Of a stretch of 64,000 bases of DNA, positions 9,547 to 56,733 are shown in pieces; position 1 is the first letter of the stretch, and the number at the start of each line of letters is the position of its first letter. The position numbers and the translations under genes were made by a program. Under the pieces are notes generated by a model, which was not told the DNA's origin, made no database searches, and worked only from the letters and a program-made list of their open reading frames with translations. The stretch is from Candidatus Omnitrophota bacterium. Lineage in GTDB: Bacteria; Omnitrophota; Gorgyraeia; Zapsychrales; Fredricksoniimonadaceae. The stretch is from positions 5,918 to 69,917 of the forward strand of contig CAIOTT010000056.1 in assembly GCA_903861305.1 (NCBI GenBank), written 5' to 3'.

Positions 9547-9579
9547 AAAGAGCTCCTTGTTGGGTTGGAATATCCATCG

Positions 9580-9608: not shown

Positions 9609-9666
9609 GAGATTTCCGGGATGACATTAAATCCCTGCTCATACGCCTGTAATAATGCCCCGATCT

Positions 9667-10930: not shown

Positions 10931-11095
10931 CTGTTTCGATTTAAAGATCGGTGATCATCTTAGCACCATCCTTCGCGTTTTTCAGCCACTTTCTCTAGTG
11001 ACACACTCTTAAACCGTGTAACTCTATTGATCAGACCTGCTCCCCTTGTTTCCGGCCAAAATATAATTTATATTTATATAAATAATTTGGTAGAT

Positions 11096-17812: not shown

Positions 17813-17990
17813 CAATATCTTTATTTTTCTGACCGTCGCGGCCGTGGCCTCCATCGCGTGGGTCATCAGCGATAACATCGCAACGTCCCTCGGGCAGGCG
17901 ACCATGACAACGGAGTCGGTCCGGCAAAGCTTCATCAACATGAAACTGCCGCTGCATGAAGGGAAGTACTGGAAGGTGTCCGATGAATAA
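17799..17990 (+). CDS. Small membrane-anchor ORF, probably the detached N-terminal leader of the downstream radical SAM enzyme
   Basis: 63 aa with TM segment IFIFLTVAAVASIAWVI. It ends ...LPLHEGKYWKVSDE*, which continues naturally into the next gene's NKIECTLCPRRC. It overlaps both neighbours (by 14 nt upstream, 8 nt downstream). Confidence 0.4.
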   Translation: MKRHDNIFIFLTVAAVASIAWVISDNIATSLGQATMTTESVRQSFINMKLPLHEGKYWKVSDE

Positions 17991-37000: not shown

Positions 37001-37271
37001 TCAGTGCCGCAAGAAAATATTTGACCAGACGCGAGGAGACTTCCCTGGCATCTGATGTTAACGACGCCGCGTCCCCTTTGTTAAGGATAAAATCAAAACG
37101 GAACGGATCTTTGGCGTAAACCTTGACCCCGGCAAGGATCGGCGGATGGAACGCGGGGCTCAGCGCCACGAGGCCCACCGGCGGGGGCATGAGCACCTGG
37201 GCATACGAAGGCGGCAGGAACGTATTCACCAGAAACGCCGCCAGAATAATGGAGGATATCCATGAACGCAT
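31029..37271 (-). CDS. Giant secreted protein P4 (2080 aa), paralog 4 of 5: signal peptide, N-cap, 2x(helical + GNAT) modules, HAD domain, 2x methyltransferase-like modules, C-cap
   Basis: Signal peptide MRSWISSIILAAFLVNTFLPPSYAQ. N-cap includes PFRFDFILNKGD and WVNLSPYEKDRIVPEAFG. GNAT-like cores are VAGFALILD...LAIDPRYRADPVKGRGSMGLGSRILERV and IAGFAMVR...VAVDPRYKADPLKGKASAGLGSIMLSRV. HAD motifs are VFDLADTLY...LASNAS...GKPDP. MTase-like cores are VKILFVGVGRGLEAIEA and VKVLFVGVGRGLEAVEA. The C-cap is DGGIDLN...GIAPVIIAVRPLNDLAGFLGAH. Start trimmed from 37412 to the ATG at 37271. Confidence 0.8.
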   Translation of the reverse strand: MRSWISSIILAAFLVNTFLPPSYAQVLMPPPVGLVALSPAFHPPILAGVKVYAKDPFRFDFILNKGDAASLTSDAREVSSRLVKYFLAALTVPAGEMWVNLSPYEKDRIVPEAFGQTEMGRDLLAQDYLLKQLTSSLMYPEQSLGKKFWAEIYKQAREKFGTTDIPVDTFNKVWIVPAKAVVYEKPKVAGNKSSDEAVAYVVEARLKVMLESDYVAMSHQKDMAEPPAPAGDLAEDHAQIEPSPLWGGNGRGSDLAKCIIRQIIIPVLEKEINEGKNFARLRQVYNSLILATWYKKKVMGALNNSPLGFYVGQNKVQGVTIDDPKEAEKIWGRYVEAFQKGAYNFIREEYDPATQETVPRKYFAGGVQIVPDLAMTDHIDAAALTPENSFLVEVHGDGIMPDGDGAQALAWKNFEAKVNSFSHETSDALLKYLLKNAAGYINKEFDRDVLFLFSRGQKPHYWEYPVFDKISSILNEEQKDEFARYLMRTDVDITARICILAKFKTVYCIHASLEEIRNFKDKDEVRHPNSVFLRIFAGRPVEDKHDLEKIRDALPPDEVVHMREVLRQRPFNAIPLAYAGVFFPELQDTAIDPVDTGLTGELLSAPTQFRFKIWDIDRKEDVEDIGRQMHNILLKSFSTEETPSLDAIYAVLNNEGHRVLFVEDGEGHVAGFALILDMNDGSVTLGVLAIDPRYRADPVKGRGSMGLGSRILERVIRDVKTLGYSRIYFQPSDKNNAIGFYRKYIGSSGRKDISLVRTNKYTKDDYAIEWAVPEDVIKERIGYLLADLRPGNTLTTADIARIVNVDSVSRVVEMLKRYYRPDIEKGRICVAPWEEFERRVNAFTYREGDSLLRYLMEDARGYIEDKFRSRQGLFTQDQIPGYWDFTVLDKISSVLNDGQKDQLALYLIKHLDNEPALAYFLTRFNTSYAVHVVLEKIRKAPTDKEAFSRAAFFMNTLAARPARYRSDFERVKASLAPDQLAELQGLMRQRSLLNVPLGYVGVFFPSLSDPELDPDHRFHSRIFDLDNDKDANSVLDQVYRILTVNFYGLELLSKIEVEALLGDPSCRWLLLQDAEGKIAGFAMVRTLEGDSVGLSLVAVDPRYKADPLKGKASAGLGSIMLSRVIHDVRSLGYSGLYYFPSDLNNAQKFYERFVSSERGVSIARSGKHRGFPYVMQWDLSDQTATTTGEAGDHAEGLKEGRADRGSLLDRPVKALVFDLADTLYASDSVKRLKVEAMVRFCLENDKGLVEKDVRAKYIELDSLSGVVKYFGLDMKAFNKAIDDLDITDAGLIPNDELAALLQRLHRSYHLVLASNASDAHVKQVLQKLGLDQVFDRIYTQGSMGVGKPDPKFFSNIAESLGFRPGAVVSIGGSLEKEVNAATSAGLKAIHVQGVEDLMANVVARIEEINAGMKEADPAAVAMAPAERTPYLEEESLDRSFELLDHFYDHQLTKMIVNSIFSTFIPGKKWGRPAPVKILFVGVGRGLEAIEAKRRYGRFVEVYAINKEDGLFYDKQSYLGAHGAGDPVHRGSAEAAFDHVRKNLRITDLDERLPSFETKFDLVVLCFATIPYVKNKVGVLNDMLEQYCKKNGHLLSFLSALIQLRSYFLEDHFSLHELMTERVPQFEGNINDLVEFFSEFKQKRKNVDVGFSFHEASLGWINIQKRGQYLIPLKFIGSRRDVQNEFPMQYSFYSREAAVSESTDGTVDGAETTQATNSRMPGGMGRMLNASETPYKDEKYISRTYRELDNVYGGQLTKLIGAKIFSNFLRARRFDGPPVKVLFVGVGRGLEAVEAQRKFGKFVDVHAINKEPGLFLDEAHFMASFGSFGNAGEERARDAFVHVRKNLKLADLDQELPSLDRKFDLVVMGTSVMPYFQDKVGVLNRILTGYCNDNGYLLSMLTNEIWLDQYASGHQTDPLLWKVAAIKNMKKVGEYFKSLARQNKNVQVSLYPLGEMKIAWVRIKKDRKYLIPLKLQEYGQPDVPDSIVADGQKGLAYFYSVYVPDSMGGNSLDHPLNRAAVDGGIDLNPVDRVMAVGAMDGGGFFHFDPAALEKYRDAAGIAPVIIAVRPLNDLAGFLGAH
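31260..33000 (-). repeat. In-frame tandem duplication inside P4 (methyltransferase-like module, two copies, period ~900 nt)
   Basis: TPYLEEESLDRSFELLDHFYDHQLTKMIVNSIF...VKILFVGVGRG...FDLVVLCFATIPYV is matched by TPYKDEKYISRTYRELDNVYGGQLTKLIGAKIF...VKVLFVGVGRG...FDLVVMGTSVMPYF. Confidence 0.7.
33700..36060 (-). repeat. In-frame tandem duplication inside P4 (helical region + GNAT, two copies, period ~1250 nt)
   Basis: Copy 1 starts ALAWKNFEAKVNSFSHETSDALLKYLLKNAAGYINKEF (~36060). Copy 2 starts VAPWEEFERRVNAFTYREGDSLLRYLMEDARGYIEDKF (~34800). The GNAT cores lie at ~35030-35300 and ~33790-34070. Confidence 0.7.
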
Positions 37272-37279
37272 CAAATTCC

Positions 37280-37301
37280 CTCTATAAAATAATTTATAGA
37301 G
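37280..37301. promoter_or_regulatory. Perfect 9 bp inverted repeat overlapping the P4 ribosome-binding region
   Basis: ctctataaa-ataa-tttatagag. On the minus strand its 3' arm runs into GAGGGAATTTG-ATG (P4 start at 37271). It could be an operator or an RBS-sequestering hairpin. Confidence 0.35.
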
Positions 37302-37338
37302 TAAGTATTTACTATAAAGATGAATAAAACAAGGTTGG

Positions 37339-38682
37339 CTAAAACTGGGTGCGGTACTTGAGGAAAACGCGGTCGTCCGGGATCTGTCGGGACGCTGTGG
37401 AGGGCTCGGCACCCTGCGCGGGAACGATCTCTTTTTGCGCCCCCAACGTTACCTTGCCCGTCACCCGGTATTCACCTTCCACGGTCTGGGTCAAAGCACG
37501 CTGGTGGCGCTCATCCGGCGTGTGCGCCACGGCCACGCCATAACCGACATCCAGCTTGTCAGAAAGGTCCCTGTTGAGCGTGACCCCCTGTTTGGTCTGG
37601 TCGAGCTTGTAGGATATGCCGGAAAATCCGAAGAACCCGGCCAGGCGCGTGCCTGCGCCGCCGAAGAAAAAGTAATCGATAAAATCACCGGCCAGCTCGG
37701 GCGTCATCTTGCGGCCTCCGGTAGAAACCCCGGCCAGGTCCCATTTTTTCCCTGTCGTCAGCATCAGCAACAGCTGCTCTTCAGGCAAAGGCGGATCGGA
37801 TACCAGACGAACATCTGGTTTCCAGCGTGTGCCTTTGGCGGCAATATCGATGTGGACGCGTGCCACTGTCGCTGTCGCGTGGACATCGATCTCAGGATTC
37901 GCCGGGTCACCGGAGAAAGTCAACCGGCTTTCCCCCAGATGCAGCAGGGTGCGCGGCGCCTGCAGAAACCCGCCGTGAATGTTGAGGGTCCCGTACGTGC
38001 CCCACAACCCGCCCGTGCGCATAAAATACAAGGCACAGCTGACAGGCGCATCTCGCAGCAGGAACCCGCCCTTGGGAATATGCCCGACCACGAACACACC
38101 CGCAACCTGCGGCTTTGCCAGCGTCCCGGTCAGTTGCAATTCAAGGCTTTTCAATTCTCCTTTTAATGGCGGGGGGTTTTTGAAATGCCTGATGATCTGG
38201 CGCAGGGCCGCAAGATCCAGGCTTTGGGAAAAGATGTCCGCGTGATAACGACCCTGCCTCAACCAGCCGTTCACAACTACAGGGTCCGCTGCGGGATCAA
38301 GGACACGGGCATTGTCGAGCGTAACATCAAGGCCATCGAACGCCGCCCGCGCCAGGCTCACATCCATTTCCTGCACGCGCACCATGCTGCCCTGCGGGAG
38401 GATCGAAGGGACATTGACCTGAAGGTTGAATATCCGCACGCCGCGTCCCAACGACCCCTCAATGCGCTCGTACGCCACCTGATCCGGGCCAAAAAAATAT
38501 TTCGTCGCCGCGCGCAATGACATCCGGGCGCCCTGCGGCGTCACGAGGAAGAACGCGGCTGATCCGGCAAGGAGAACAAAAATGGAGAGCAGGACGATCA
38601 AAAAGATCCCGATGATCCTGTCCAAGGAGAACCTGGCCACGTCAGCTCCTGATCTTTCCCAGAAGCCGCAAAAGGCCATCAA
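37339..38682 (-). CDS. Short TamB-like protein (N-terminal membrane anchor + DUF490/TamB C-terminal domain)
   Basis: 447 aa with anchor IIGIFLIVLLSIFVLLAGSAAFFLV. DUF490-like stretch: RLTFSGDPANPEIDVHATATVARVHIDIAAKGTRWKPDVRLVSDPPLPEEQLLLMLTTGKKW. Ends in ...FLKYRTQF. The exact start is uncertain, since it overlaps the upstream gene by ~41 nt. Confidence 0.6.
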   Translation of the reverse strand: MMAFCGFWERSGADVARFSLDRIIGIFLIVLLSIFVLLAGSAAFFLVTPQGARMSLRAATKYFFGPDQVAYERIEGSLGRGVRIFNLQVNVPSILPQGSMVRVQEMDVSLARAAFDGLDVTLDNARVLDPAADPVVVNGWLRQGRYHADIFSQSLDLAALRQIIRHFKNPPPLKGELKSLELQLTGTLAKPQVAGVFVVGHIPKGGFLLRDAPVSCALYFMRTGGLWGTYGTLNIHGGFLQAPRTLLHLGESRLTFSGDPANPEIDVHATATVARVHIDIAAKGTRWKPDVRLVSDPPLPEEQLLLMLTTGKKWDLAGVSTGGRKMTPELAGDFIDYFFFGGAGTRLAGFFGFSGISYKLDQTKQGVTLNRDLSDKLDVGYGVAVAHTPDERHQRALTQTVEGEYRVTGKVTLGAQKEIVPAQGAEPSTASRQIPDDRVFLKYRTQF

Positions 38683-39304
38683 GGATGGTCAGCGGATGCG
38701 GCGGGCATCCCGGGATGTAGAGATCGACAGGAATGAGCGCGCCGGCCCCCTGTGAAGCTTCGGGCCCTTCAGCAAATAATCCACCCGTGATCGCGCACGT
38801 CCCCACCGCAATGACGATCTTGGGCTCAGGCATGGCCGCGTAGGTCCGCAGAAGGGCATCTTTCATGTTCCGCGGGACAGGCCCCGTGACCACCAGGCCG
38901 TCAGCATGACGGGGGGATGCCACGAACTGTATCCCGAAACGGCTCAGGTCAAATACCACGGTGTTGAGGACATTGAGGTCAAGTTCACAGGCATTGCATC
39001 CGCCCGCGGAAACCTGGCGCAATTTGATAGAACGGCCGAACACCCGGAGCATTTCCGCGTTGAGCGCGCGGGCCAGCTTTTGCTCCTTCTCGCCGGCAAC
39101 AAGGTCATCGCGCCCGGAAGCGGCCATGCGAAAGTCCCCGGCATACGCCACCCCGTCATCGGGAGCGAACGTCAGGTTGCCGGCATCCACCCCGGCGGCG
39201 ATGGGCCTGCCGCGGTAACGCGCCGGCAGCACCGGCGCCGGACCTTTGGGGAACGCAATGGTCCGCGTTTTTTGCCTCAACCGTGTCATGATGATCTTCA
39301 GCAT
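38642..39304 (-). CDS. NuoB/HycG/HyfI-like small subunit of a group-4-hydrogenase-related (Ehr-like) membrane complex
   Basis: 220 aa. All four cluster ligands are present: GGCNAC, GTCAITGG and PGCPPHP. Confidence 0.85.
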   Translation of the reverse strand: MLKIIMTRLRQKTRTIAFPKGPAPVLPARYRGRPIAAGVDAGNLTFAPDDGVAYAGDFRMAASGRDDLVAGEKEQKLARALNAEMLRVFGRSIKLRQVSAGGCNACELDLNVLNTVVFDLSRFGIQFVASPRHADGLVVTGPVPRNMKDALLRTYAAMPEPKIVIAVGTCAITGGLFAEGPEASQGAGALIPVDLYIPGCPPHPLTILDGLLRLLGKIRS

Positions 39305-39316
39305 ATCAGCCCCGCC

Positions 39317-40828
39317 TCACAGGTCATGCCCGCAATAGGACAAGTTGAAACTTTTATTGCACAGCGGAAAATCCGAGATCTCACCGCCGCGCATCACCAA
39401 CGCCAGCGCGTGCCAGTTATGGAACGACGGGTCCTTGATCTTGTAGCGCGTGAAAGCACCCTGGCTGTCCGTGATGCCGGCATGCATGATCTCGCCGCGC
39501 CAGCCTTCGACAAGTGCCATGGCCATCATCCCGGGCTGCAGGGCGCCCGGCGGCGTAAAGACCCCTCCCCTGGGAAGGGACGGCAGGACCTTGAGCAGGA
39601 ATTCCAGGGATCGCATGGCTTCCTGTTTTTTTACCAAAGCGCGCGCGAGCACATCACCCGTAGCGCTCACCGAAAGCGGGACATGATGGAACTGCCACAT
39701 CCCGGACGCGTAGTTGATGCGCACGTCGCGTTCCAGGTGGCTGGCGCGGGCCGCGGGGCCGACGACGCCCAGCTTCTTCGCGTCTGCCATGGACAGCACG
39801 CCTACGCCTTCGAAACGGGCGAGCACCGAAGGCCTGGAAAACAACAGGGCACTCACATCCTCAAATTCCCGGCGATACAACTTCAATTTTCTGCAAAGAT
39901 CGTCGGCCATTGCCGGCTCAATATCAAACAAAACGCCGCCCGGACGGCACAACCCTTTGCCAAAACGGCTGCCGGTCAACGCCAAAAGGAGGTTCAGGTA
40001 ATCCCCGCGCATGCGCCCGAAATACGCGCTTGACGGCAGGAACCCCGTATCCATCCCCATGGCGCCAAGGTCCCCCGTGTGATTGGCCAGGCGCTCCAGT
40101 TCGAGTGCCACGGCGCGGATGGCCTGCGCCCGGGGCGGGATCACGCAGCCGGCCAGAGCTTCAACGACCTCGCAGTATGCCACCGAATGACCTATGGCCG
40201 TGTCCCCCGCGATGGCTTCACTCAATAAGGCGCCACGCCGCACATCACGGCCGCGCATCATGGGCTCAAGGCCACGGTGCTGGTACCCGAGCTGGATCTC
40301 CAGGTGAAGTATCTCTTCCCCGTGGCACTGGAAACGGAAATGCCCGGGTTCAATGATACCCGCGTGAACAGGGCCGACACCAACCTCATGGACTTCCTCA
40401 CCACCCACAGCAAAAAAAGGATACGCGCCGGGAATGACCTGACGGGATATATCGGGCCAAATATCGGGCGCGCCGCGGTAATTCGAATGATAGCGCAGCG
40501 GCTTGAGCCAGGGATGCCCCTCGGGCACGACGGCCCATTGTTCCGCGATCTCACGCTCAAAGGCATGGGCCTGCACAAGGTCTTTGGTAAGGGATTCATA
40601 CTGCAGCCTGTCGGCAGGCAGCCGCGTTGACAGAGCCACCAGCGATGCTTCCTCGTCAAACCCGAGGACCGCGAAAAGCCGAACGCTCCCGTCATCCTGC
40701 CGGTCACCGAACAGGTTCACCAGGCGCCCTTCAGCAGCGCAGGCATCAATGATCTGCCCGCGGAATTCCTCTACGGGAAGGTCCGGGATATCTGCCAGCG
40801 CCGCGCGCGCTCCGTTGAATAATTCCAT
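39317..40828 (-). CDS. NuoC-NuoD / HycE-HyfG-like large subunit that apparently lacks the Ni-Fe cysteine ligands (EhrL-like)
   Basis: Contains GPVHAGIIEPGHFRFQCHGEEILHLEIQLGYQHRGLE. At the expected RxCGxCxxxH position it reads SEAIAGDTAIGHSVAY. The C-terminus reads FNLSYCGHDL rather than DPCxxCxxR/H. Start trimmed to the MELFNG ATG at 40828, directly after the upstream stop. Confidence 0.8.
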   Translation of the reverse strand: MELFNGARAALADIPDLPVEEFRGQIIDACAAEGRLVNLFGDRQDDGSVRLFAVLGFDEEASLVALSTRLPADRLQYESLTKDLVQAHAFEREIAEQWAVVPEGHPWLKPLRYHSNYRGAPDIWPDISRQVIPGAYPFFAVGGEEVHEVGVGPVHAGIIEPGHFRFQCHGEEILHLEIQLGYQHRGLEPMMRGRDVRRGALLSEAIAGDTAIGHSVAYCEVVEALAGCVIPPRAQAIRAVALELERLANHTGDLGAMGMDTGFLPSSAYFGRMRGDYLNLLLALTGSRFGKGLCRPGGVLFDIEPAMADDLCRKLKLYRREFEDVSALLFSRPSVLARFEGVGVLSMADAKKLGVVGPAARASHLERDVRINYASGMWQFHHVPLSVSATGDVLARALVKKQEAMRSLEFLLKVLPSLPRGGVFTPPGALQPGMMAMALVEGWRGEIMHAGITDSQGAFTRYKIKDPSFHNWHALALVMRGGEISDFPLCNKSFNLSYCGHDL

Positions 40829-40829
40829 A

Positions 40830-42242
40830 TCAGCCCCCCACCAAAGCCGCGGCCGCGCGTATGACCCTCTCCAGCGGCACCGGCAGCCACACGCCAAGAA
40901 CGACCAAGCCCGCCGCCCCCAGCCCGATCGCCGTGTTCATGAAAAGGTTCTCTTTCTTCTCCAAGACCGGCGCCGTTGCTTCCCCGTGCGCCGCGTCAAG
41001 GATGATCCGGCCGATACCAACGAACACCAGCGCCAGGCAGGCCACCACCGCGGCCGCGAGGACATACTGACGGGAGGCGATCGCGGCGTTGAGGATCATC
41101 AGCTCGCTGTGGAACGTGGCAAAAGGGAACATGCCCGTACCGGCGAGGAATGCCACGATCAGGAACATCCCCGTCACCGGATAAACATGAAGGATGCCCC
41201 GGACATCGCCGACGCGTGAGGAACCGTATTTTTGCGCGATCGACCCGGCCGTAAAGAACATGATGACTTTCGCCAGCGCGTTATTGATCATGTGGAACAA
41301 CGCACCGAAAACCCCCGCCCCGCCGAGACCAAGGCCCAGGACCAGAAGCCCCATGTGCTCGATGGAAGAATACGCGAACGCCCGCTTGATGTTCCTTTCA
41401 CCCAGGACGAACAAGGCGGGAACGACCAGCGACAGGAATCCCGAAAGGATCAGGATCGATCCATAAAATTCGCCAAGGCCCGTTCTATGGCAGATCTGGC
41501 TGACACGTAAAAGGGCCAGGAACGCGCACTGGGTCAGCGCGCCAGCCATCACGACCACGACCATCCCCGTGGCCTGGCCGTAGGCCTCCGGCTTCCAGCT
41601 GTGCGTGGGGGCCAACCCCATTTTGCAGCCATAACCAACAAAAAGGAATATAACACTCAGCTTGAGCCAGTTGACCAACAGCAGCGGCGCACCATTCAAC
41701 AGGGACGGTAAAAGGAGGGTGTGCACATCGTGCGCGGCGATCGCGAGAAAGAACGTCCCCATGAGCGCCAGGGCTATACCGACCGAGCAGATCAGCAAAT
41801 ATTTCCAGGTCGCCTCAAGGCTCTGGGGGGTGCGGTGAAAACTGATGAGCGGCGCGCTGAGCAGCGTCGTCGTCTCGACCGAGACCCATAACAGGCCCAT
41901 GTGGTAACTGACGGCCACAACGCTCATGGCCGAGAGCACGAACAGCAGGCAGGCCATGAAGTACCTGTTGTTCCTTTGTTCATGCTCGAAATACCCGATC
42001 ATATAGACCGCCAGGCTCAGGAAAAGCACCGTGTCGATCGACAGCATGATCAGCCCCAGGGGGTCCAGGACCAAAGCGCCGTCGAACTGCGGCGGGGGCA
42101 ATTGTTTCCAGCATGACGCCACAAGGCCCGCGTGGACCAACGTCACAGCCAGGAACAGCAGGCATCTGCCCGCGTTCTTCAGCGGCAGGAACGCGGCCAG
42201 GGCCCCGGTGAACGGGACAAGGATCAGCGCCAGTACTATCAT
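40830..42242 (-). CDS. NuoN/NuoM/HyfF-like antiporter-type membrane subunit
   Basis: 470 aa, about 14 TM helices, proton-conducting membrane transporter family features. Confidence 0.8.
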   Translation of the reverse strand: MIVLALILVPFTGALAAFLPLKNAGRCLLFLAVTLVHAGLVASCWKQLPPPQFDGALVLDPLGLIMLSIDTVLFLSLAVYMIGYFEHEQRNNRYFMACLLFVLSAMSVVAVSYHMGLLWVSVETTTLLSAPLISFHRTPQSLEATWKYLLICSVGIALALMGTFFLAIAAHDVHTLLLPSLLNGAPLLLVNWLKLSVIFLFVGYGCKMGLAPTHSWKPEAYGQATGMVVVVMAGALTQCAFLALLRVSQICHRTGLGEFYGSILILSGFLSLVVPALFVLGERNIKRAFAYSSIEHMGLLVLGLGLGGAGVFGALFHMINNALAKVIMFFTAGSIAQKYGSSRVGDVRGILHVYPVTGMFLIVAFLAGTGMFPFATFHSELMILNAAIASRQYVLAAAVVACLALVFVGIGRIILDAAHGEATAPVLEKKENLFMNTAIGLGAAGLVVLGVWLPVPLERVIRAAAALVGG

Positions 42243-42907
42243 GCGTTCTCCCCCATCTTGCCACGGCTGGATCCCGGCGACCGCTCAAAGGCTTCATTGA
42301 TATGATTGACAACAATGGCCATGATGAACACGGCCACAAAGATATCCAGCAGGATGCCCATTTCCATGATGACGGGCATGGCATCGAACAGGGAAAGCCC
42401 AAAAAGGAAGATCCCGTTCTCCATCACCAGGTATCCCAGGACCTGGGCCACGGCCAGCGTGCGGGTCACCATGATCATGAACCCCAGGAGCACCGTGGCC
42501 AGGGAACACGGCAGGATCAGGTCGGACAAAGGCTTGCCCGGCAATTTCAGCGACAAAGAAACCCAGAAAGCCCCGGCGATCAGCAGCGCGCCAAAGATGA
42601 GCGAAGCGCCGACCCCGATGATCGGCTTGATCTCGGAACGCATGGAAACCCGGCGTATCGCCCAGGACAGGATATACGGAACGAGCCCGGCCTTGAGCAC
42701 CAGCGTCCCCAGCGCCAGGGTGATATCACGCCCGGCCAGGTCATGGGCATGCAGGAAGAACGGCACAAAGCTCAGCACAAAGGCCTGGGCCGCGAAGATC
42801 TGGATCACCCCGATCAAACGGTGCGTCGCCAGCATCGCCAGGGCGAAGAACACAATAAGGATACAACTTGCATCGATCCATGCTGTCATCTTGACTACAT
42901 CCTCCAC
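42239..42907 (-). CDS. HyfE-like (NuoK-related) membrane subunit
   Basis: 222 aa, polytopic. Its size and position between the NuoH-like and NuoN-like genes match hyfE. Confidence 0.65.
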   Translation of the reverse strand: MEDVVKMTAWIDASCILIVFFALAMLATHRLIGVIQIFAAQAFVLSFVPFFLHAHDLAGRDITLALGTLVLKAGLVPYILSWAIRRVSMRSEIKPIIGVGASLIFGALLIAGAFWVSLSLKLPGKPLSDLILPCSLATVLLGFMIMVTRTLAVAQVLGYLVMENGIFLFGLSLFDAMPVIMEMGILLDIFVAVFIMAIVVNHINEAFERSPGSSRGKMGENA

Positions 42908-43821
42908 AAGCCGACAATGAACCCGAAGAACGCGAGGACGAATGCGATCAGCAAAAGGTTCCTCACGCGGTTAAGGCGCAGGCGTGCCATCGACGATTCC
43001 ACGATCCCCACCAGGACGGCCATCCCTGCCATCCCGCCCAGGAAAATGGCCATGTCCGCCAGCGGATAACCCATCCGGACGGGGATGACCAGCGGCACCA
43101 CGATCGCCGCGAACAGGAAGAGTTTCACGGCCGCGCCGTAGAGCATATATGCCAGGTCAATGCCGCTGTGCTCCAGGATCATCACCTCATGGATCATGGT
43201 CAATTCCAGGTGCGTGTCCGGGTCGTCGACAGGAATGCGGCAGTTCTCCGCCAGAAGGACGATGAACATGCTGGCCGCCACAAGCAGGAGCGCCGGGCCC
43301 GCGTGCACCCACAGTAAAGGCACCTCGGCGCCGATCATGCGCGATAATGAAAAACCGTGCGCCAGGAGCGCCAGGGTGATGAAATTCATGAACAGCGCCA
43401 ACTCCCCCAGGCAGGCGAAGAACGCCTCGCGGCTGGCGCCCATGCCTTCCATCCCAAAGCCCGTGTCCAAAGCAGCCACGATCATGAAGAACCGGGCCAG
43501 GCCGAGCATCGCCGCCAGCCACAGGATATCGCCCGTGAACGCCGCCGGGGCCTGGGATATGCCCAAAGGCACCGCCAGTGACAAGGCCAGCATCGCGGCG
43601 AGCATGACCAGGGGCGCGGCGCGGAAGACCCACGTGGTGGTGCGGCTGTAGACGGAATTCTTGAAAAAAAGGCGCCTCAGGTCAAAATACGGCTGGAATA
43701 ACGACGGGCCGGTCTTCCCGGCAAAACGGGCCTTGACCCTCGCGATCACGCCCGTGAATAGCGGTGCCAGGATCAGGGCCAGCAGCCAGTGAGAACCAAC
43801 GTCGCATGTCAGCATCAGCAT
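42895..43821 (-). CDS. NuoH/HycD/HyfC-like membrane subunit
   Basis: 308 aa, polytopic, NADH dehydrogenase subunit 1-like. Confidence 0.75.
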   Translation of the reverse strand: MLMLTCDVGSHWLLALILAPLFTGVIARVKARFAGKTGPSLFQPYFDLRRLFFKNSVYSRTTTWVFRAAPLVMLAAMLALSLAVPLGISQAPAAFTGDILWLAAMLGLARFFMIVAALDTGFGMEGMGASREAFFACLGELALFMNFITLALLAHGFSLSRMIGAEVPLLWVHAGPALLLVAASMFIVLLAENCRIPVDDPDTHLELTMIHEVMILEHSGIDLAYMLYGAAVKLFLFAAIVVPLVIPVRMGYPLADMAIFLGGMAGMAVLVGIVESSMARLRLNRVRNLLLIAFVLAFFGFIVGLWRM

Positions 43822-43828
43822 AGAAGGG

Positions 43829-45655
43829 TCATTTCAATTTCCAAAGCAACAAGACGAGAAGGAACACAAAAATATACATCAGGTACAGCTGCGTATAACG
43901 GATACGGTTGATGTCGAGCTTCACCGAAAGCCCGGTCAACCGCACGAACAGCGGATAAAAGAACGAACTTTCCGAAGCGTCCTGGACCGAAGAATGCATC
44001 TCGGCTTTCCCCGGGAAGTCAGCCGAGATCTGCGTGGCCTGCCGCCGGAACAACAGGACACCTTTGGCAAATTCCATGATCGATCTTGCGAACGAGGACG
44101 CGGTGTACTGGAACCGCGGCGCGGCACCCGTACCACCTGAGAAACCGCAGTTCCATGTCGGGACGAGCGGCATCGGGCGCAGGCCCGACAATGCCAGGCG
44201 CCTCACGGTCGCCAGCACAACGGCCAGTGCCAGGAACATGGCCGCCATGCCTGTGACCATGGCCAGCGGCGCCAGGATGCTTTCTGCCCCCGAAGGCAGC
44301 GCGCGCATCATGAACGCACCGGCCGCAAACGTCAAACGCACCCAGGGTTGCGGCGCCAGTCCGATCACAAGGCACAACCCCGCAAGGATCATCATCGGAA
44401 CGATCATCCAGGCCGAGACCTCCTGCAGGCCCTCCGCCGCGGGCAAAGACCTCGGCTCACCCAGAAAGACCGTCCCGTAAACTTTTGTGAAACACGCCAG
44501 CGCCAGCGCCCCCATCAACGCCAGGGCCAGGATCGCCAGGCCGCAGACAACAGCGCCCGTCAGGGGCAAATGAACAAGCCCGTGGAAAAGCCCGAAATAA
44601 ATGATGAACTCACTGATGAAACCGTTGAACAAGGGCAACCCGCAAATGGAAACAGCACCAACGAGGAACAAGGCCGCCGTGACGGGCATGCGCTTCGCCA
44701 GGCCGCCCAGACGGTCCAGAGCACCCGTGTGGGCCTTCTGGATAACGGCACCCGCACCGAAGAATAAAAGCCCCTTGAAGATCGAATGGTTCACAACGTG
44801 CAGGAGCGCCCCGCCGAAACCAAGCATCGTCAACAACGGGTCATGGTACGTCCGTCCCAGGAGCCCGATGCCCAGCCCCAGCGCGATGATGCCGATATTC
44901 TCGATGCTGTGATACGCCAGGAGCTTTTTAAGCTCATGCTGCCCCAGCGCGTACAAAACGCCCATGACCCCGGAAACGACCCCTGTCAAAAGAAGTGCAT
45001 AGCCGCACCAATCCGGAAGGTCACCCGTCATCCAGATCACACGGCATATCCCGTAAATCCCCGTCTTGATCGCCACGCCGGACAAAAGGGCTGACACATG
45101 CGACGGCGCCGCCGGATGGGCGTGCGGCAGCCATATGTGGCCCGGGATGAACCCCGCCTTGACCCCGAACCCGACCATGGCCAGGAGAAATACCGCCCCC
45201 GCGGTAACAGGCGAAAAATGCGCATGCGCGATCATGTCAAAATCCATGGATCCCGCGGTATGGGCCATGAGAAGGAACATCAGAAAAAGGCAGAAGGTGC
45301 CGCCATGCGCCATGACAAGATAAAGGAACCCCGCCTTGCGCGCCGCACGGTCCTCGTCATTGAAAACGATCAGGAAATACGTCGCGATCGACATGATCTC
45401 CCACGCACCCAGGAAAAGGACCACATTGCTGGCCGTGGCTATGACCACCAGCACAAGGGCCAGTACGATGTAAAAGAAAATGTGCAGCCCCAGGGGCTTC
45501 TTCCCGGCATAAGCGCGCATGTACCCCGCTCCATAGATCCCCGCGCAGGCCACCAGCAGGGTAATGGCAATAAGGAACACAGCGCTCAAGAGGTCGATCC
45601 TGAAGGATAACGTCCCGAAAGGCACCTGCCAGGCGGAATGGTATATCGCGGCCAT
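43829..45655 (-). CDS. NuoL/HycC/HyfB-like antiporter-type membrane subunit
   Basis: 608 aa, polytopic. First gene of the six-gene module. Its ATG abuts the TAG of the upstream HTH-EIIA gene. Confidence 0.8.
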   Translation of the reverse strand: MAAIYHSAWQVPFGTLSFRIDLLSAVFLIAITLLVACAGIYGAGYMRAYAGKKPLGLHIFFYIVLALVLVVIATASNVVLFLGAWEIMSIATYFLIVFNDEDRAARKAGFLYLVMAHGGTFCLFLMFLLMAHTAGSMDFDMIAHAHFSPVTAGAVFLLAMVGFGVKAGFIPGHIWLPHAHPAAPSHVSALLSGVAIKTGIYGICRVIWMTGDLPDWCGYALLLTGVVSGVMGVLYALGQHELKKLLAYHSIENIGIIALGLGIGLLGRTYHDPLLTMLGFGGALLHVVNHSIFKGLLFFGAGAVIQKAHTGALDRLGGLAKRMPVTAALFLVGAVSICGLPLFNGFISEFIIYFGLFHGLVHLPLTGAVVCGLAILALALMGALALACFTKVYGTVFLGEPRSLPAAEGLQEVSAWMIVPMMILAGLCLVIGLAPQPWVRLTFAAGAFMMRALPSGAESILAPLAMVTGMAAMFLALAVVLATVRRLALSGLRPMPLVPTWNCGFSGGTGAAPRFQYTASSFARSIMEFAKGVLLFRRQATQISADFPGKAEMHSSVQDASESSFFYPLFVRLTGLSVKLDINRIRYTQLYLMYIFVFLLVLLLWKLK

Positions 45656-46357
45656 CTAACCGGCCCTCGACGTTTTGGATTCCGCCACCTGGAAGACCGC
45701 CAGTATCTCCTCGCGGGCAACCGACAGCGGGGCCATGCGGCTTTTCGCCAGTACGGCCTTTACAGCGTCATCCTGAAGGCAGAACGCCAGGCGCGATAAC
45801 AGCGACAGATGGCCTTTGAACGAGGAGGAAAGGATCATGAAAAGCGTATGGACCGGCTGGCCATCCACGGCGGAAAAATCAACAGGGTTCTCCAGGAAGA
45901 ACAGGCCCACCACAGGCTCGACACCAGCCAGAACGACCGGATGCTTCACATGCGGGATGGCGATCCCGTCTCCCAGGCCTGTTGTGCCGACCTGTTCGCG
46001 GGACAGGAGCATTTCTTTCAGCGGCGCTTTCTGGATGTGCGCGGGCAAAGGAAGAAGGTCGAGCGCGTTGCCCAGGACCTCCTCACAGGAAAGGCCCTTC
46101 AACCCGGAATGGACACCGCCGCGTGTGAGTGCCGGCGTGATGACATCCTGCCCCTGGCGGGCCCTTTCGCAAAGCTTGAGGGCTCCCGGGGTTAAAGGAA
46201 CACGTTCCTTCAGCGCCCACTCCAAAACCTCGACAGAGTTAAAATAATACTGGTCATTGGCCTTGACCGCGGGCATGCCCCTGGCGTTGAGCCACTGGTA
46301 AAGCGTCCTTTCCTTGATCTCGAACGCGTCCTCGATATCGCGGAATGTCAGTTGCAT
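45656..46357 (-). CDS. HTH (excisionase/MerR-like) + PTS EIIA type-2 (EIIA-Ntr-like) fusion protein
   Basis: 233 aa. N-terminal ERTLYQWLNARGMPAVKANDQYYFNSVEVLEWA. C-terminal EIIA-2 region with GLGDGIAIPHVKH (phosphorylatable His). Confidence 0.7.
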   Translation of the reverse strand: MQLTFRDIEDAFEIKERTLYQWLNARGMPAVKANDQYYFNSVEVLEWALKERVPLTPGALKLCERARQGQDVITPALTRGGVHSGLKGLSCEEVLGNALDLLPLPAHIQKAPLKEMLLSREQVGTTGLGDGIAIPHVKHPVVLAGVEPVVGLFFLENPVDFSAVDGQPVHTLFMILSSSFKGHLSLLSRLAFCLQDDAVKAVLAKSRMAPLSVAREEILAVFQVAESKTSRAG

Positions 46358-46361: not shown

Positions 46362-48023
46362 TTACCCTTTTTTAATGTCCGCCAGGATGATGTTCGCGCG
46401 GGCGATCGCGTCTTTCATATTGGCAAAAACATTGTCCTCGCCGATCAGCTCATAAAGATTCGCCTTGACGATCTCATTCAGCGGCTGAACGTGCAGCCCC
46501 GTGATGATCAACGCGGTGTTCTCCTTGCGGCTTTTCTCGTAAAAGCTCCTCAAAGCATGCATTCCCGTCGAATCAATGATCGGCACATCGCGGAAACGGA
46601 GGATACGCACTTTCGGGGCACCGCCCACCTGCCGGTCGATCTCGTCAAACCGGCTGGCCGCGCCGAAGAACAGCGGGCCATTGATCTCATAGATCTCGAC
46701 ATCCTTGGGGATAACAAAATTCGACAACGGAAGGTCCTCGCCCTTCTCATCCGCGTCGTATTCCCTGGCCACCAGCTTGATGTTGGTCGCGTCCGCCATC
46801 CGCTTCATAAAGATGAACGTCGCCAGGACAACACCGACCTCGATCGCCGCGTTCAGATCAACGAATACCGTCAGGCCAAAGGTCGTTACAAGGACCAAAG
46901 CCCCGCCGCGCGACCACTTCAATAGCTCCACGAACGAACGCCATTCGCTCATGTGATAGGCAACAACAACAAGGATACCCGCCAGGCAAGCCAGCGGCAC
47001 GTACTTGATCAAGCCGCCCAGGAACAACATGATCAAAAGCACCGTGATGGCATGGATCATGCCGGCCACGGGCGTGCGCCCGCCATTCTTGATGTTCGTC
47101 ACGGTCCGCGCGATCGCTCCGGTCGCGGGGATGCCGCCGAAAAGGGCTGAGGCGATATTCGCCGCGCCCTGCGCGATAAGCTCGGTGTTGGAACGGTGCC
47201 GCGCGCCGATCATGCCGTCAGCCACGATGGCGGAAAGGAGCGATTCAATGGCGCCCAGCAAGGCGATCGTGACCGCGGGCTGGAACAGCTCGCGCAGCAA
47301 CGCAAGATTGATCAACGGAAAATGCGGCATGGGCAAAACGCGGGGCAAATCCCCGAAGCGGCTGCCGACCGTTTCAACCTGCAAATGGCACAGGGCCGTG
47401 ACGGCTGTCACAACAATAAGGGCGATGAGCGCCCCCGGCACCCGCTTGGATATCTTCGGCGTTATCACGATAATAAGGACGGTCAAAAGGCCCGTCATCA
47501 TCGCGTCGTAATTCACAGTCCCTATGTTAGCGATGAAAAGATGCCATTTCTCGATGAACTCGGCCGGGACCTTGCCGATCGAAAGGCCCAGAAAATCCTT
47601 CACCTGCGAAGAAAATATGATCACCGCGATCCCGCTGGTGAACCCGACGATCACGGAATGCGGGATAAATTTGACAGCGGTCCCGAGCCTCGCGAAACCC
47701 ATGATCAACAGAAGGACGCCGCCCATGAGGGTCGCGAGGATAAGCCCGTCCACGCCATGTTTCTGGACAATGCCGTAAACAATGACCACGAAAGCGCCCG
47801 TGGGCCCGCCGATCTGCACACGGCTGCCGCCGAGCGCCGAAATGATGAACCCCGCGACAATGGCCGTAAAAAGCCCCTTGTCCGGCGAAACACCCGAAGC
47901 GATGGCAAAGGCAACGGCCAGAGGGATCGCCACAACACCCACAATGATGCCCGCGATGGCATCAGAAAAGAACTTCTCTTTGGAATAATCTTTCAGGCAC
48001 GTTACAAGTTTCGGAGCGAACAT
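46362..48023 (-). CDS. SulP-family anion transporter with C-terminal STAS domain
   Basis: 553 aa. Contains FSDAIAGIIVGVVAIPLAVAFAIASGVSP, a polytopic core, and a STAS-like tail (VRILRFRDVPIIDSTGMHAL). Confidence 0.88.
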   Translation of the reverse strand: MFAPKLVTCLKDYSKEKFFSDAIAGIIVGVVAIPLAVAFAIASGVSPDKGLFTAIVAGFIISALGGSRVQIGGPTGAFVVIVYGIVQKHGVDGLILATLMGGVLLLIMGFARLGTAVKFIPHSVIVGFTSGIAVIIFSSQVKDFLGLSIGKVPAEFIEKWHLFIANIGTVNYDAMMTGLLTVLIIVITPKISKRVPGALIALIVVTAVTALCHLQVETVGSRFGDLPRVLPMPHFPLINLALLRELFQPAVTIALLGAIESLLSAIVADGMIGARHRSNTELIAQGAANIASALFGGIPATGAIARTVTNIKNGGRTPVAGMIHAITVLLIMLFLGGLIKYVPLACLAGILVVVAYHMSEWRSFVELLKWSRGGALVLVTTFGLTVFVDLNAAIEVGVVLATFIFMKRMADATNIKLVAREYDADEKGEDLPLSNFVIPKDVEIYEINGPLFFGAASRFDEIDRQVGGAPKVRILRFRDVPIIDSTGMHALRSFYEKSRKENTALIITGLHVQPLNEIVKANLYELIGEDNVFANMKDAIARANIILADIKKG

Positions 48024-48078: not shown

Positions 48079-48106
48079 ATTATACGCTCTATTGAACGGC
48101 TGTAAA
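48079..48106 (-). promoter_or_regulatory. Putative sigma70-type promoter of the sulP / HTH-EIIA / Ehr-like operon
   Basis: The minus strand reads TTTACA-N16-TATAAT (plus-strand tgtaaa at 48101-48106, attata at 48079-48084), about 55 nt upstream of the sulP ATG. Confidence 0.45.
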
Positions 48107-55669: not shown

Positions 55670-55815
55670 CCCCGCCCTTTTGTTAAACGGCCTGACCACC
55701 AGAACAGGCCATAATAAGTATATAATATTAAAAAGGTAAATATGGGGATACGGAAGGCATTCGGGAAAACGTTTTCCCGATCACATGACGCGCGGGGGTT
55801 GGTAATGTCCTGGGA

Positions 55816-56733
55816 CTATTTCGGCTCGGGATGGACCGTGACGTCGGCATCAGGGTAAATATCCTGGATGGCTTTTTCGACGTCTTCGGTCAGGCGATGG
55901 GCCTCTTGCAGGGAGATGCGGCCATCGAGCAGGACATGCAGTTCCACAAAAAGCTGCGGCCCGGAGGAACGGACGCGCACATAATGGCAATTGAGCACAC
56001 CGGGGACCGTTTCCGCGGTGGCGATCACTTTCTCTTCCAGCCCTTCAGGCGCCCCGTCAAGCAGGGCATTCACCGTGCGGCTGCCGAGCTTCCAGCTGAT
56101 CTGGATGACAATGAGACCAACGACAAGCGCGGCAACGGCGTCCGCGTAATGGAGCCACGCCACCGCGGGGATCATATTGCCCAGCACCACGCACCCCAGC
56201 CCGAGGATAACGACCGCCGAGCTCCAGATATCGGTCGAAAAATGGAGCGCGTCGGCCTCAAGGGCCTGGCTGTTATATTTCTTCGCGGCCTTGAACAGCA
56301 TACGCGAACGTGACACGTCAACAATGATGGACACAGCCATAACAGCGAACGACCAGACCGTGACCTCCACATCCGTCCTTCCGGAAATAATGCGATGGAT
56401 CGCCTCATAGCCGATCCACGCACATGTCACAAGCAGGAGCGCTGTTTCAAACAACGCCGAAAGGTTCTCGACCTTGCCGTGGCCGTAACGGTGTTCGCGG
56501 TCCGCGGGCTTGGCGGAAGCGCGCACAGCCAGCAGCGTGACCACCGCGGCCACCAGGTCAAAGCCCGAATGGGCCGCTTCGGCAAGGATGCCAAGGCTTC
56601 CCGTTCCAAAACCCACCACGACCTTCATGATAACAAGGGCCATCGCCGCAAACACCGAGTTTGCAGCCGCGCTCTCTTTTTTCTTGCCATGACCCATGTC
56701 ATGATCGGTAGAGTTCTTCAAAGATTCCCGCAC
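55816..56733 (-). CDS. Cation diffusion facilitator (CDF) family metal efflux transporter
   Basis: 305 aa. Six TM helices with HSGFDLVAA and HFSTDIWSS metal-site motifs, plus a C-terminal cytoplasmic domain. The start may be the internal ATG at 56697. Confidence 0.85.
   Translation of the reverse strand: MRESLKNSTDHDMGHGKKKESAAANSVFAAMALVIMKVVVGFGTGSLGILAEAAHSGFDLVAAVVTLLAVRASAKPADREHRYGHGKVENLSALFETALLLVTCAWIGYEAIHRIISGRTDVEVTVWSFAVMAVSIIVDVSRSRMLFKAAKKYNSQALEADALHFSTDIWSSAVVILGLGCVVLGNMIPAVAWLHYADAVAALVVGLIVIQISWKLGSRTVNALLDGAPEGLEEKVIATAETVPGVLNCHYVRVRSSGPQLFVELHVLLDGRISLQEAHRLTEDVEKAIQDIYPDADVTVHPEPK

Follow-up and report, generated by a model that had tools for sequence, protein, structure and literature searches.

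What task is left to a hydrogenase-like membrane complex whose large subunit no longer carries the Cys residues that would hold a Ni-Fe cofactor? This question is raised by a six-gene operon, ehrABCDLS, which is located on a 64-kb stretch of contig CAIOTT010000056.1 from a Candidatus Omnitrophota bacterium. The whole stretch was analyzed and is referred to as the window; every coordinate given below is a position in it. Sequence comparisons support the view that the locus encodes an energy-converting-hydrogenase-related (Ehr) or Hyq-type complex, which would descend from Hyf-type group 4 [NiFe]-hydrogenases.

The six genes are arranged back-to-back on the minus strand (38642-45655), and inspection of the open reading frames (ORFs) found all of them intact at these positions. 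Subunits were assigned through Pfam and NCBIfam profile matches. Coordinates and matches agree with the NuoL-, NuoH-, HyfE-, NuoN/M-, NuoCD/HycE- and NuoB/HycG-like set that a preliminary description of this DNA had proposed:

43829-45655, minus strand: EhrA, 608 aa, HyfB/NuoL-like antiporter-type subunit (Pfam Proton_antipo_M; HyfB NF005086, 543 bits)
42895-43821, minus strand: EhrB, 308 aa, NuoH/HyfC-like subunit (Pfam NADHdh, 2.3e-29)
42239-42907, minus strand: EhrC, 222 aa, HyfE-like subunit, related to NuoJ/K (NCBIfam HyfE NF008556, 4.3e-22)
40830-42242, minus strand: EhrD, 470 aa, HyfF/NuoM/N-like antiporter-type subunit (Pfam, NCBIfam)
39317-40828, minus strand: EhrL, 503 aa, HycE/NuoC-NuoD-like large subunit (Complex1_49kDa and a weak match to Complex1_30kDa)
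38642-39304, minus strand: EhrS, 220 aa, NuoB/HycG-like small subunit (Pfam Oxidored_q6)

Junctions within ehrABCDLS measure 0-12 nt or are short overlaps. For EhrC, gene callers choose an alternative start at 42889, which gives 216 aa. EhrL starts with the ATG at 40828, 1 base past the EhrD stop codon, and gene callers agree on this start in identical public contigs; TTG 40897, with which the longest ORF begins, falls inside the preceding gene and is not the true start. The closest named homologues of the window protein all come from Candidatus Omnitrophota metagenome-assembled genomes.

The former Ni-Fe pocket and the remaining Fe-S cluster

The best relative of EhrL among solved structures is HycE of E. 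coli (7z0s_E; E 8.4e-47, 163.5 bits in HMMER), and further matches are Nqo4 (1e-35), MbhL (2.5e-35) and MbsL (6u8y_L, 74 bits). The HMMER alignment with HycE spans EhrL residues 67-498 and pairs DRVCGICGFAHS of HycE with EAIAGDTAIGHS of EhrL. HycE CGIC lies opposite EhrL AGDT (40199-40210), and DPCY(SCTDR) lies opposite NLSY(CGHDL) at 39320-39346, which is followed by the stop codon. The four Ni-Fe ligand positions thus correspond to Ala207, Thr210, Ser497 and Gly500 in EhrL, none of which is Cys. Cys499 is one residue off register and varies between C, A and S among the 120 closest homologues; it is therefore no ligand. The preliminary description had already read AGDT at the CGxC site and NLSYCGHDL at the DPCxxC site. 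Indeed, the proper alignment places zero Cys in register at either site, and the four correctly placed Cys ligands that would have spoken for a normal hydrogenase are not there. EhrL lacks both the L1 (RxCGxCxxxH) and the L2 (DPCxxCxxH/R) ligands of group 4 [NiFe]-hydrogenases. By its sequence, EhrL should be unable to bind the Ni-Fe cofactor, and the complex would therefore not be a conventional hydrogenase.

During maturation, HycE is cleaved after Arg537. EhrL ends at Leu503, which is aligned to the final residue of mature HycE, and it carries no C-terminal extension for a HycI-type endopeptidase. Since EhrL ends where mature HycE ends, no C-terminal processing protease is needed.

The pocket has not been left to drift. 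Asp209 and Asp502 are 100% conserved, and Ser497 and Gly500 are invariant among the relatives. Cys168 is conserved to 94%, and Cys168, His155, Glu160, His163 and His214 all reach at least 94%. In total, 56 charged or aromatic residues of EhrL are at least 90% conserved (~60-80 loci, >10 phyla), and the hydrogenase-type proton-relay (EPGH) loop GPVHAGIIEPGH is kept. The former Ni-Fe pocket is rebuilt as an equally conserved, Cys-free polar site made of [A/S/C]-G-D-[S/T], Ser497, Gly500 and Asp502. At two further positions, where Nqo4 (2fug_4) has His38 and Tyr87, the HMMER alignment shows Ile159 and Gly208 in EhrL. These Nqo4 residues are the canonical quinone ligands of NuoD (T. thermophilus numbering). 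Quinone as acceptor by complex-I logic was considered and judged unlikely, as these His/Tyr ligands are replaced.

The same signature is widespread. An exhaustive search of representatives with EhrL returned 882 cluster representatives at E <= 1e-30, and the signature was tallied on the 107 full-length sequences among the best 150 representatives. About 100 of these 107 share [A/S/C]-G-D-[S/T] at L1 together with a C-terminal KSFNLSY-x-G-x-DL, at 33-57% identity, and 7 carry CGxC and LCYxCxDR. AGDT itself is present in 116 of the 120 closest EhrL homologues. In a distance (neighbour-joining) tree of 98 sequences, calculated without support values, the seven Cys-bearing hydrogenases group in a single clade, which lies outside the 91 Cys-less proteins. 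When one genome per species was scanned, ~80 Ehr loci were recovered with the same gene order throughout, in Omnitrophota, Verrucomicrobiota, Planctomycetota, Gemmatimonadota, Desulfobacterota (including Geobacter and cable bacteria) and Spirochaetota, and further in Acidobacteriota, Myxococcota, Chlamydiota, Zixibacteria, Riflebacteria and Fibrobacterota. With this distribution, the Cys-less signature is a trait of the family and not a private decay.

EhrS matches MbhJ (2.3e-33) and HycG (3.5e-32). Its NuoB-like domain comprises residues ~96-220, in which Cys103, Cys106, Cys170 and Cys200 align with the NuoB ligand positions, so that the small subunit keeps all four cluster cysteines as first described. 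These four Cys are retained in 116 of the 120 closest EhrS homologues. The N-terminal part of the protein has a different history:

39020-39304, minus strand: vestigial HycF/NuoI domain (EhrS residues ~1-95), Cys-free

EhrS relatives from most phyla have Cx3CxxCxxxCP and CxxCxxCxxxCP within their first ~110 residues, and residues 1-111 of these relatives match HycF NF009053 (1e-18 to 1e-20) as well as the NuoI and HyfH models. The N-terminus of the window EhrS aligns with that of the relatives at both ends; ~30 residues in the middle are missing and zero Cys are left. On its own, the vestige scores only E = 0.11 against HycF/NuoI models. BLASTP of the EhrS N-terminus with an approximate HycF sequence, a weak test, gave no alignment, and an AlphaFold2 model of EhrS built with 58 close homologues was unusable (mean predicted local distance difference test score 38). 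Among the 120 closest homologues this region measures 97-105 aa and contains 0-3 Cys, never enough for a cluster. The alignments thus identify EhrS residues ~1-95 as a probable vestige of the two-cluster HycF/NuoI ferredoxin domain present in other small subunits of Ehr. Throughout the Omnitrophota clade the Cys of both relay clusters of this fused domain have been lost, which leaves one cluster. The preliminary description had stated that no HycF/NuoI-type ferredoxin subunit is present. This holds for a separate gene and for the clusters, but not for the domain as such, as its Cys-free vestige is fused to EhrS.

Comparison of 73 EhrS sequences places this loss in a series. Most show the pattern of eight ferredoxin-type plus four NuoB-type Cys. 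EhrS of Desulfobacterales/Desulfobulbales has ligands for exactly one ferredoxin cluster, Gemmatimonadota and some Geobacter have a partial set of ferredoxin Cys, and Omnitrophota have no ferredoxin-type ligands. The proximal cluster is best kept, with all four Cys in 69 of the 73 sequences. Judged from these patterns, the distal clusters may have been lost stepwise, which fits a wire shortened from its distal end.

The membrane subunits retain the residues expected for ion translocation, which are kept in at least 90% of the sequences from ~60-80 loci in >10 phyla. In EhrA, E86 (transmembrane helix (TM) 5), K166/H173 (TM7), K197 (TM8), H286/H290/K294 (TM11) and E349 (TM12) are conserved in at least 97% of 58 relatives. 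The acidic chain of EhrB (E125, E132, E140, E192, D199, D200, E206, E212) is at least 94% conserved, and EhrC has conserved E92, E163, E182 and D188. EhrD, whose best solved matches include 6u8y_H of the sulfane reductase MBS (1.7e-24), carries E123 (TM5), K207/H214 (TM7) and E380 (TM12), which were mapped by alignment to MbsH, MbhH and MbsM and are at least 91% conserved; K325 also belongs to the conserved ion-translocation residues. This is, as far as sequence tells, the residue pattern of a working pump and not of a relic.

Taken together, EhrL without CxxC, a four-Cys NuoB-type subunit, HyfB/HyfF/NuoH/HyfE partners and the tree placement apart from Cys-bearing hydrogenases uphold the Ehr identity that had been suggested at first.

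The HTH-EIIA gene, the operon head and other genes of the window

The Ehr module sits in a longer transcription unit, which also contains the genes for a SulP transporter and for a PtsN-like protein with helix-turn-helix (HTH) domain:

48079..48106, minus strand: promoter-like site, TTTACA-16-TATAAT, 11/12 match to a sigma-70-like consensus, in the 119-nt gap 5' of the SulP gene
46362-48023, minus strand: SulP/SLC26 transporter, 553 aa (Pfam Sulfate_transp, 3.6e-87; C-terminal STAS, 8.6e-13), 4 nt 5' of the EIIA gene
45656-46357, minus strand: HTH-EIIA gene, 233 aa (Pfam PTS_EIIA_2, 2.4e-19; HTH_17, 26.1 bits)
37339-38640, minus strand: TamB-like gene, 433 aa (Pfam TamB, 4.7e-17), begins 1 nt past the EhrS stop; a giant ORF comes next

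The promoter call relies on a consensus scan, in which 48079-48106 was the best-scoring site of the region; this predicted promoter is likely the start of the transcription unit. At the other end, the TamB-like gene is probably co-transcribed with the Ehr operon in the window. It was rejected as a member of the system, as it is absent 3' of EhrS in the related loci L002, L004 and L086-L088.

The stop codon of the HTH-EIIA gene abuts the EhrA start codon. The EIIA_2 region aligns with the PtsN structures 1a6j and 2a0j (E. coli, Neisseria), including the phosphorylatable His, which is His136 in the motif GIAIPH (codon 45950-45952) and is invariant in 24 to 40 relatives. Against the PtsN equivalog model the protein scores 60.9 bits at a cut-off of 138.7; it is a PtsN relative, not an orthologue. 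In contrast to PtsN and other regulators controlled by the phosphotransferase system (PTS), it has an N-terminally fused HTH_17 domain and neither PRD nor sigma-54-activator domains.

The HTH-EIIA gene lies directly 5' of the NuoL-like gene in at least 35 of the 54 loci that were found through EhrL and have enough upstream DNA. The reverse test used 80 metagenome loci fetched via the EIIA protein (37-79% identity): all 63 loci with at least 400 nt of downstream DNA have a NuoL-like gene right after EIIA. When the flanking ORFs of 82 loci were clustered all-vs-all, only EIIA, SulP and scattered histidine kinases recurred, further large clusters being artefacts of antisense ORFs, and HTH-EIIA was the only broadly recurring neighbour family of Ehr. 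The check for conserved neighbours that the preliminary description had put forward was thus fruitful: the HTH-EIIA gene recurs across many phyla, and SulP or malic enzyme within the Omnitrophota clade. We infer from this synteny that the HTH-EIIA gene is a dedicated seventh gene, a probable regulator or partner of the Ehr module in many phyla.

A candidate binding site for the protein emerged from the upstream regions. A tandem repeat TGTC[C/A/T]-N5-6-TGTC[C/A/T] is located between a -35-like TTGACA and the EIIA gene in many loci of Planctomycetota, Verrucomicrobiota and other groups, with 59 matches in 44 kb of upstream DNA versus 14 in 1,086 kb elsewhere, i.e. ~100-fold enriched. The (A/T)TGTCC-N5-(A/T)TGTCC direct repeats have a 10-11 bp period, often stand just 3' of TTGACA and are in some cases present three or four times (L008-L012, L016, L019, L020, L027, L045, L065 and about 35 metagenome loci within L109-L168). 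Such enrichment upstream of its own gene is the expected product of an autoregulated DNA-binding protein, and the TGTCC repeat is a candidate operator of the HTH-EIIA protein.

The SulP protein scores 516 bits with the DauA model of NCBIfam (cut-off 614), 380 with the generic sulP model and 266 with BicA. It is thus closest to the model of the C4-dicarboxylate transporter DauA. The gene directly 5' of EIIA was tallied in Omnitrophota-type loci and their nearest relatives. SulP or malic enzyme occupies this position in 16 of the 20 Omnitrophota-type loci (window included; the neighbour is known for 19, L093 being the remaining one):

SulP upstream: window, L006, L086, L095, L096, L108, L098-L100
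SulP upstream, after malic enzyme and CitMHS: L002 (malic enzyme, CitMHS, SulP, EIIA, Ehr)
NAD(P)-malic enzyme upstream: L087, L089, L090, L091, L094, L102
neither SulP nor malic enzyme upstream: L004, L088, L097

A few Verrucomicrobiota/Planctomycetota loci (L063, L069, L014) also have SulP or malic enzyme upstream. Going by this gene context, the Ehr of the clade is likely tied to uptake and decarboxylation of C4-dicarboxylates and not to formate or H2; therefore, the likely setting is C4-dicarboxylate uptake and fermentation. The same context fits a regulator that reads the state of the PTS (phosphoenolpyruvate/pyruvate).

Of note, SulP-less Omnitrophota Ehr operons share a leader hairpin of 16 bp, CCCCTGTCATGCTAAAGGAAACTTTGGCGGCAGGGG, followed by a U-tract, ~25-40 nt 5' of the first gene (EIIA or malic enzyme). 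None of the following copies is in the window:

L004:3986-4045, L087:2024-2084 and L089:2471-2530
L090:2459-2518, L094:2504-2564 and L097:3933-3992

Compensatory changes occur at two base pairs of the hairpin, which has a consensus energy of -23.5 kcal/mol. Rfam matched no family in the window, in four related loci or in the hairpin, which by its form looks like a terminator or attenuator.

A Pfam scan covered all window ORFs of 60 aa or more except the three largest giant ones (at least 1840 aa). It detected no genes for Hyp proteins, HycI, formate dehydrogenase or a separate HycF/NuoI in the 64-kb window, in line with the earlier statement that a HycF/NuoI-type ferredoxin subunit, formate dehydrogenase, hyp genes and a maturation protease are absent nearby; six related loci, too, have no hyp genes in their gene tables. 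At 608-9642 (minus strand), ~29 kb from the Ehr operon, there is a complete [FeFe]-hydrogenase cluster, to which a radical-SAM gene may be added:

608-2104, minus strand: HydG-like radical-SAM/BATS protein
2101-3606, minus strand: HydF
3362-4738, minus strand: aspartase/fumarase-type lyase
4754-5074, minus strand: TM1266-like "iron-only hydrogenase system regulator"
5145-6905, minus strand: HydA with NuoG-type N-terminus
6930-8765, minus strand: NuoF-like HydB
8713-9054, minus strand: small 2Fe-2S thioredoxin-like ORF
9073-9642, minus strand: NuoE-like HydC
17956-18957: radical-SAM gene, which could be HydE

The NuoE/F-like genes at 6930-9642 belong to this cluster, and as the window holds the cluster, the H2 metabolism of the organism is therefore of the [FeFe] type. 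Three more genes would suit an anaerobic organism able to detoxify O2 or NO:

55816-56733: CDF cation-efflux transporter
56773-57966: flavodiiron-type protein with metallo-beta-lactamase/ODP and flavodoxin domains
16619-17812: FMN_bind and 4Fe-4S polyferredoxin-like membrane protein

The operon is flanked by five giant ORFs (1115-2518 aa) at 11027-16549 (plus strand) and at 23451-27617, 27593-30940, 31029-37412 and 48143-55699 (minus strand). Most have no Pfam match; one matches AvrB_AvrC, and a public near-identical copy of another has acetyltransferase and HAD domains. Their G+C content is 0.49-0.53 in the four giant ORFs between 11 and 37.4 kb and 0.54-0.57 in 48143-55699; it is ~0.60 in the Ehr operon.

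Possible functions of the complex

That substrate and electron partner have not been established for Ehr, as the preliminary description had put it, still holds, though papers on Azorhizobium Hyq claim an H2-related activity. The best explanation for the data, and in our estimate a fairly probable one by analogy to related complexes, would be a redox-linked ion translocator to which no acceptor is assigned. A low-potential soluble carrier such as ferredoxin or flavodoxin would reduce the single EhrS cluster directly, and the cluster would hand electrons or coupled charge to a small acceptor in a pocket at the EhrL/EhrS/EhrB interface. The change in charge would then drive H+ or Na+ through EhrB, EhrC, EhrD and EhrA, as in complex I, the hydrogenase MBH and MBS; the reverse direction is possible as well. 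The unit would be transcribed from the promoter 5' of the DauA-like SulP gene and governed by HTH-EIIA(Ntr) as one-component regulator, whose His136 would couple expression to the phosphorylation state of the PTS. Ehr would thereby make or use an ion gradient during C4-dicarboxylate uptake and fermentation.

Several observations weigh against this explanation. It assumes direct reduction of the proximal cluster, which is normally buried, now that the relay clusters are gone. The mechanism is drawn by analogy, and with the canonical NuoD quinone ligands replaced in EhrL, quinone is no obvious acceptor. Redox partners (formate dehydrogenase, NuoEFG, hyp genes, ferredoxin) do not recur beside Ehr in ~80 loci. 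The DauA assignment of the SulP protein stays under the NCBIfam cut-off, and neither the window nor the Omnitrophota clade has the TGTCC operator. Genetic data on Hyq suggest an H2-linked role that an ion-translocator model does not predict. A simple wire model fails in four loci (L022, L033, L070, L073), which have lost NuoB-type Cys but still have all eight Cys of the ferredoxin type. Between two and four of the NuoB-type Cys are replaced in these loci (SEEW, SCEW, DVCW, SCCF), which retain the EhrL signature and readable pump residues, the EhrB ORF of L033 being fragmentary and EhrD of L022 truncated. The ORFs of L022 and L033 are fragmented in long-read assemblies and may contain errors or be pseudogenes; L070 and L073 appear intact.

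These four loci lead to the rival that survives best, which we nevertheless consider unlikely: a redox-independent ion transporter, i.e. an Mrp-type antiporter or a regulated leak or pump. The cytoplasmic arm would serve as structural or regulatory cap, the remaining cluster would be structural or a redox sensor, and the EIIA-like protein would gate or regulate the transporter, as PtsN does for K+ transport. An erosion of Fe-S ligands that proceeds independently by lineage and cluster, including loss of the proximal ligands in otherwise intact complexes, argues for this possibility, as does the want of a recurrent redox partner nearby. Moreover, the only universal neighbour is a PtsN-like protein encoded always directly 5' of the NuoL-like gene, EIIA and a NuoL-like gene even form a separate two-gene unit in Geobacter-type loci, and an ion-coupled transporter, SulP, is associated with the module. 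However, 69 of 73 loci have the complete set of proximal-cluster Cys and most phyla keep the eight ferredoxin Cys, which speaks against redox independence. The very strong conservation of EhrL, with rebuilt pocket and EPGH loop, would be difficult to explain if it were no more than a cap. Mrp antiporters operate without NuoB/D/H-type subunits. The operon departs from their subunit set by its NuoB-, NuoCD- and NuoH-like genes, and no Pfam/NCBIfam match to the MrpB, E, F and G families was found among its genes. Finally, the HTH domain and the upstream tandem repeat indicate a DNA-binding regulator, not a gating subunit.

A non-canonical hydrogenase, as claimed for Hyq, would turn over H2 with the Cys-free pocket and the proximal cluster and couple this reaction to the membrane. 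In N2-fixing A. caulinodans, deletion of hyqRBCEFGI shifts H2 evolution 10- to 15-fold, HyqG lacks both CxxC motifs and HyqI has the NuoB-type cluster only (PMC3357923, PMC2650096). Rhizobial HyqG shares SGD[S/T] and the GHDL-end with EhrL, which in turn retains the proton-relay loop. Against these parallels, identity to HyqG amounts to only 32.5%, no assay of the isolated enzyme is at hand and the Hyq authors themselves call a Ni-Fe site "uncertain, if not unlikely" (PMC3357923, PMC2650096). The H2 phenotypes of Hyq could also be indirect, via electron supply to nitrogenase, and no chemistry is known by which H2 is activated at Asp/Ser/Thr ligands. The window in addition already encodes a complete HydABC-type [FeFe]-hydrogenase with HydF/G maturases. 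On the whole, we consider this role of Ehr improbable.

Similarly poor prospects attach to an MBS-like reductase, in which the proximal [4Fe-4S] cluster would itself be catalytic on sulfur species or a small anion, possibly imported by SulP, in parallel to Pyrococcus MBS. The combination of a Cys-less large subunit with a conserved proximal cluster, the MBS subunit among the best solved matches of EhrD (6u8y_H, 1.7e-24), the SulP-family gene at the operon head and the citation of MBX/MBS as hydrogenase-related (PMC6349859) would suit such an enzyme. However, EhrL is much nearer to HycE (163.5 bits) than to MbsL (74 bits), six subunits stand against 13 in MBS, and SulP, being closest to DauA and alternating with malic enzyme, points to carbon and not to sulfur metabolism. 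With all four proximal-cluster Cys in place, an open iron site is not evident.

An ordinary group 4 [NiFe]-hydrogenase or a decaying, functionless remnant is hardly credible. In its favour, the operon follows Hyf/Hyc in gene order and in every subunit family, and the homologues carry the database label "Ni,Fe-hydrogenase III large subunit". However, once EhrL is properly aligned, none of the four ligand positions holds a Cys, and hundreds of sequences from many phyla have the same substitutions fixed. The ORFs are intact and tightly coupled, with strongly conserved pump residues, hyp/hycI genes are missing from the window, and identical independent contigs exclude a sequencing error at both motifs.

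Beyond this locus, a wider idea may be formulated, which we regard as speculative and rather unlikely: Ehr/Hyq would be a minimal complex-I-type coupling machine, for which one proximal cluster and a Cys-free Asp/Ser/Thr pocket suffice. It would be directly controlled by PTS(Ntr), tied to C4-dicarboxylate uptake, and either perform an unrecognised redox chemistry on a small molecule, possibly H2-linked as claimed for Hyq, or couple ion translocation to a process other than electron transfer. If true, the Omnitrophota form and the variants without proximal cluster would demonstrate that the complex can do without a continuous electron wire. The question matters because Ehr/Hyq is widespread (>10 phyla) and has been invoked as "missing link" between hydrogenases and complex I. 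A naturally minimal one-cluster form narrows where chemistry can occur, and the lineage-specific erosion of different Fe-S clusters constrains any Ehr mechanism. The HTH-EIIA regulator with its phospho-His and the TGTCC operator point to the physiological signal that switches Ehr on, and the link to DauA-like SulP and malic enzyme suggests growth conditions in which an Ehr phenotype should appear. Regulator, operator, dicarboxylate context and cluster-loss pattern thus make Ehr function more directly testable.

Comparison with known systems

The single-cluster form, the HTH-EIIA regulator and the C4-dicarboxylate link were not found in the accessible literature, and the accessible Ehr literature makes no mention of the HTH-EIIA gene; these features do not define a new kind of system. 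The more distant relatives differ in architecture. Complex I/NDH-1 shares homologous NuoB, C, D, H, L, M/N and J/K-type subunits, and the N2-type ligands and the antiporter Lys/Glu residues are kept in the window operon. In contrast to complex I, Pfam/NCBIfam matches to NuoA, a separate NuoI, NuoE, F and G are missing from the operon, loop and pocket residues of EhrL are hydrogenase-type and Nqo4 His38/Tyr87 are replaced. MBX/MBS sulfane reductase is of a 13-subunit archaeal type. E. coli hydrogenase-4/formate hydrogenlyase (Hyf/Hyc, group 4a; 7Z0S) is closer: it has the same gene order and the EPGH loop, provides the best solved match for EhrL (HycE) and, with HycG, a top match for EhrS, and is the best NCBIfam hit of EhrA, EhrC and EhrD. 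Unlike Hyf/Hyc, the window operon has no Ni-Fe Cys, no HycI-type extension and no HyfA, HyfD, HyfJ, FdhF or hyp genes, and HycF is shrunk to the Cys-free N-terminal appendage of EhrS.

Hyq (hyqRBCEFGI) of Azorhizobium and other alphaproteobacterial diazotrophs likewise comprises seven genes, with a regulator first and then B-C-E-F-G-I, and has a Cys-less large subunit of ~504 aa and a single-cluster small subunit. In A. caulinodans, both CxxC motifs are missing from HyqG (504 aa), and the Cys of HyqI are of the NuoB type only; the authors infer an "endo-hydrogenase" from H2 evolution of deletion mutants and concede that there was no cell-free assay, and Hyq is under NifA/sigma-54 control in aerobic or microaerophilic, quinone-using diazotrophs (PMC3357923, PMC2650096). 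A HyqG encoded on a rhizobial plasmid (L169) bears the same signature as EhrL, SGDS and a ...SYSGHDL-end, at 32.5% identity. Differences concern HyqR, an XRE-like HTH protein of 104 aa without homology to HTH-EIIA, and HyqI, which is without even a vestigial NuoI domain, whereas EhrS keeps the vestige. HyqR had been considered as HTH-EIIA homologue and was rejected (BLASTP nothing, hhalign 19% probability). An H2-linked phenotype is reported for Hyq only.

The closest match is Ehr itself. Its published composition is a NuoC-NuoD fusion, a NuoB-NuoI fusion, HyfB, HyfF, NuoH and HyfE (PMC6349859, Suppl. Note 4), with a group-4-type large subunit that lacks the two CxxC motifs and a NuoB-type small subunit (PMC6349859, PMC10284858); its function is given as not known, and formate dehydrogenase was proposed as partner in some lineages (PMC6349859). 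The window operon has the same six-subunit set, NuoC-NuoD fusion and Cys-less large subunit. In contrast to typical Ehr, which has eight Cys in a NuoI part that is ~30 residues longer, this part is a shortened, Cys-free vestige here, and the formate dehydrogenase partner has no counterpart at the locus. Ehr of Geobacter, Geomonas and Pelobacter shows the same gene order, GD[S/T] and DL-end and pump residues, at 47-50% EhrL identity, but differs by a second NuoL-like gene (EhrA-1), which is paired with the EIIA gene and sometimes divergent. In Geobacter-type loci EIIA and EhrA-1 make up a separate two-gene unit, divergent from ehrA-2BCDLS. A second NuoL-like gene of this kind was seen in L026, L051 and L084 (Geobacter-type), in L042 and L044, and in L059, L069, L073 and L081; in L051 and L064 a second Hyf-like cluster stands beside the Ehr genes, whose small subunit resembles that of a true hydrogenase. 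As the six-subunit layout has already been published for Ehr and Azorhizobium Hyq, the locus is of a known kind; what is new is the variant, with one cluster, SulP or malic enzyme at the operon head and probable control by HTH-EIIA.

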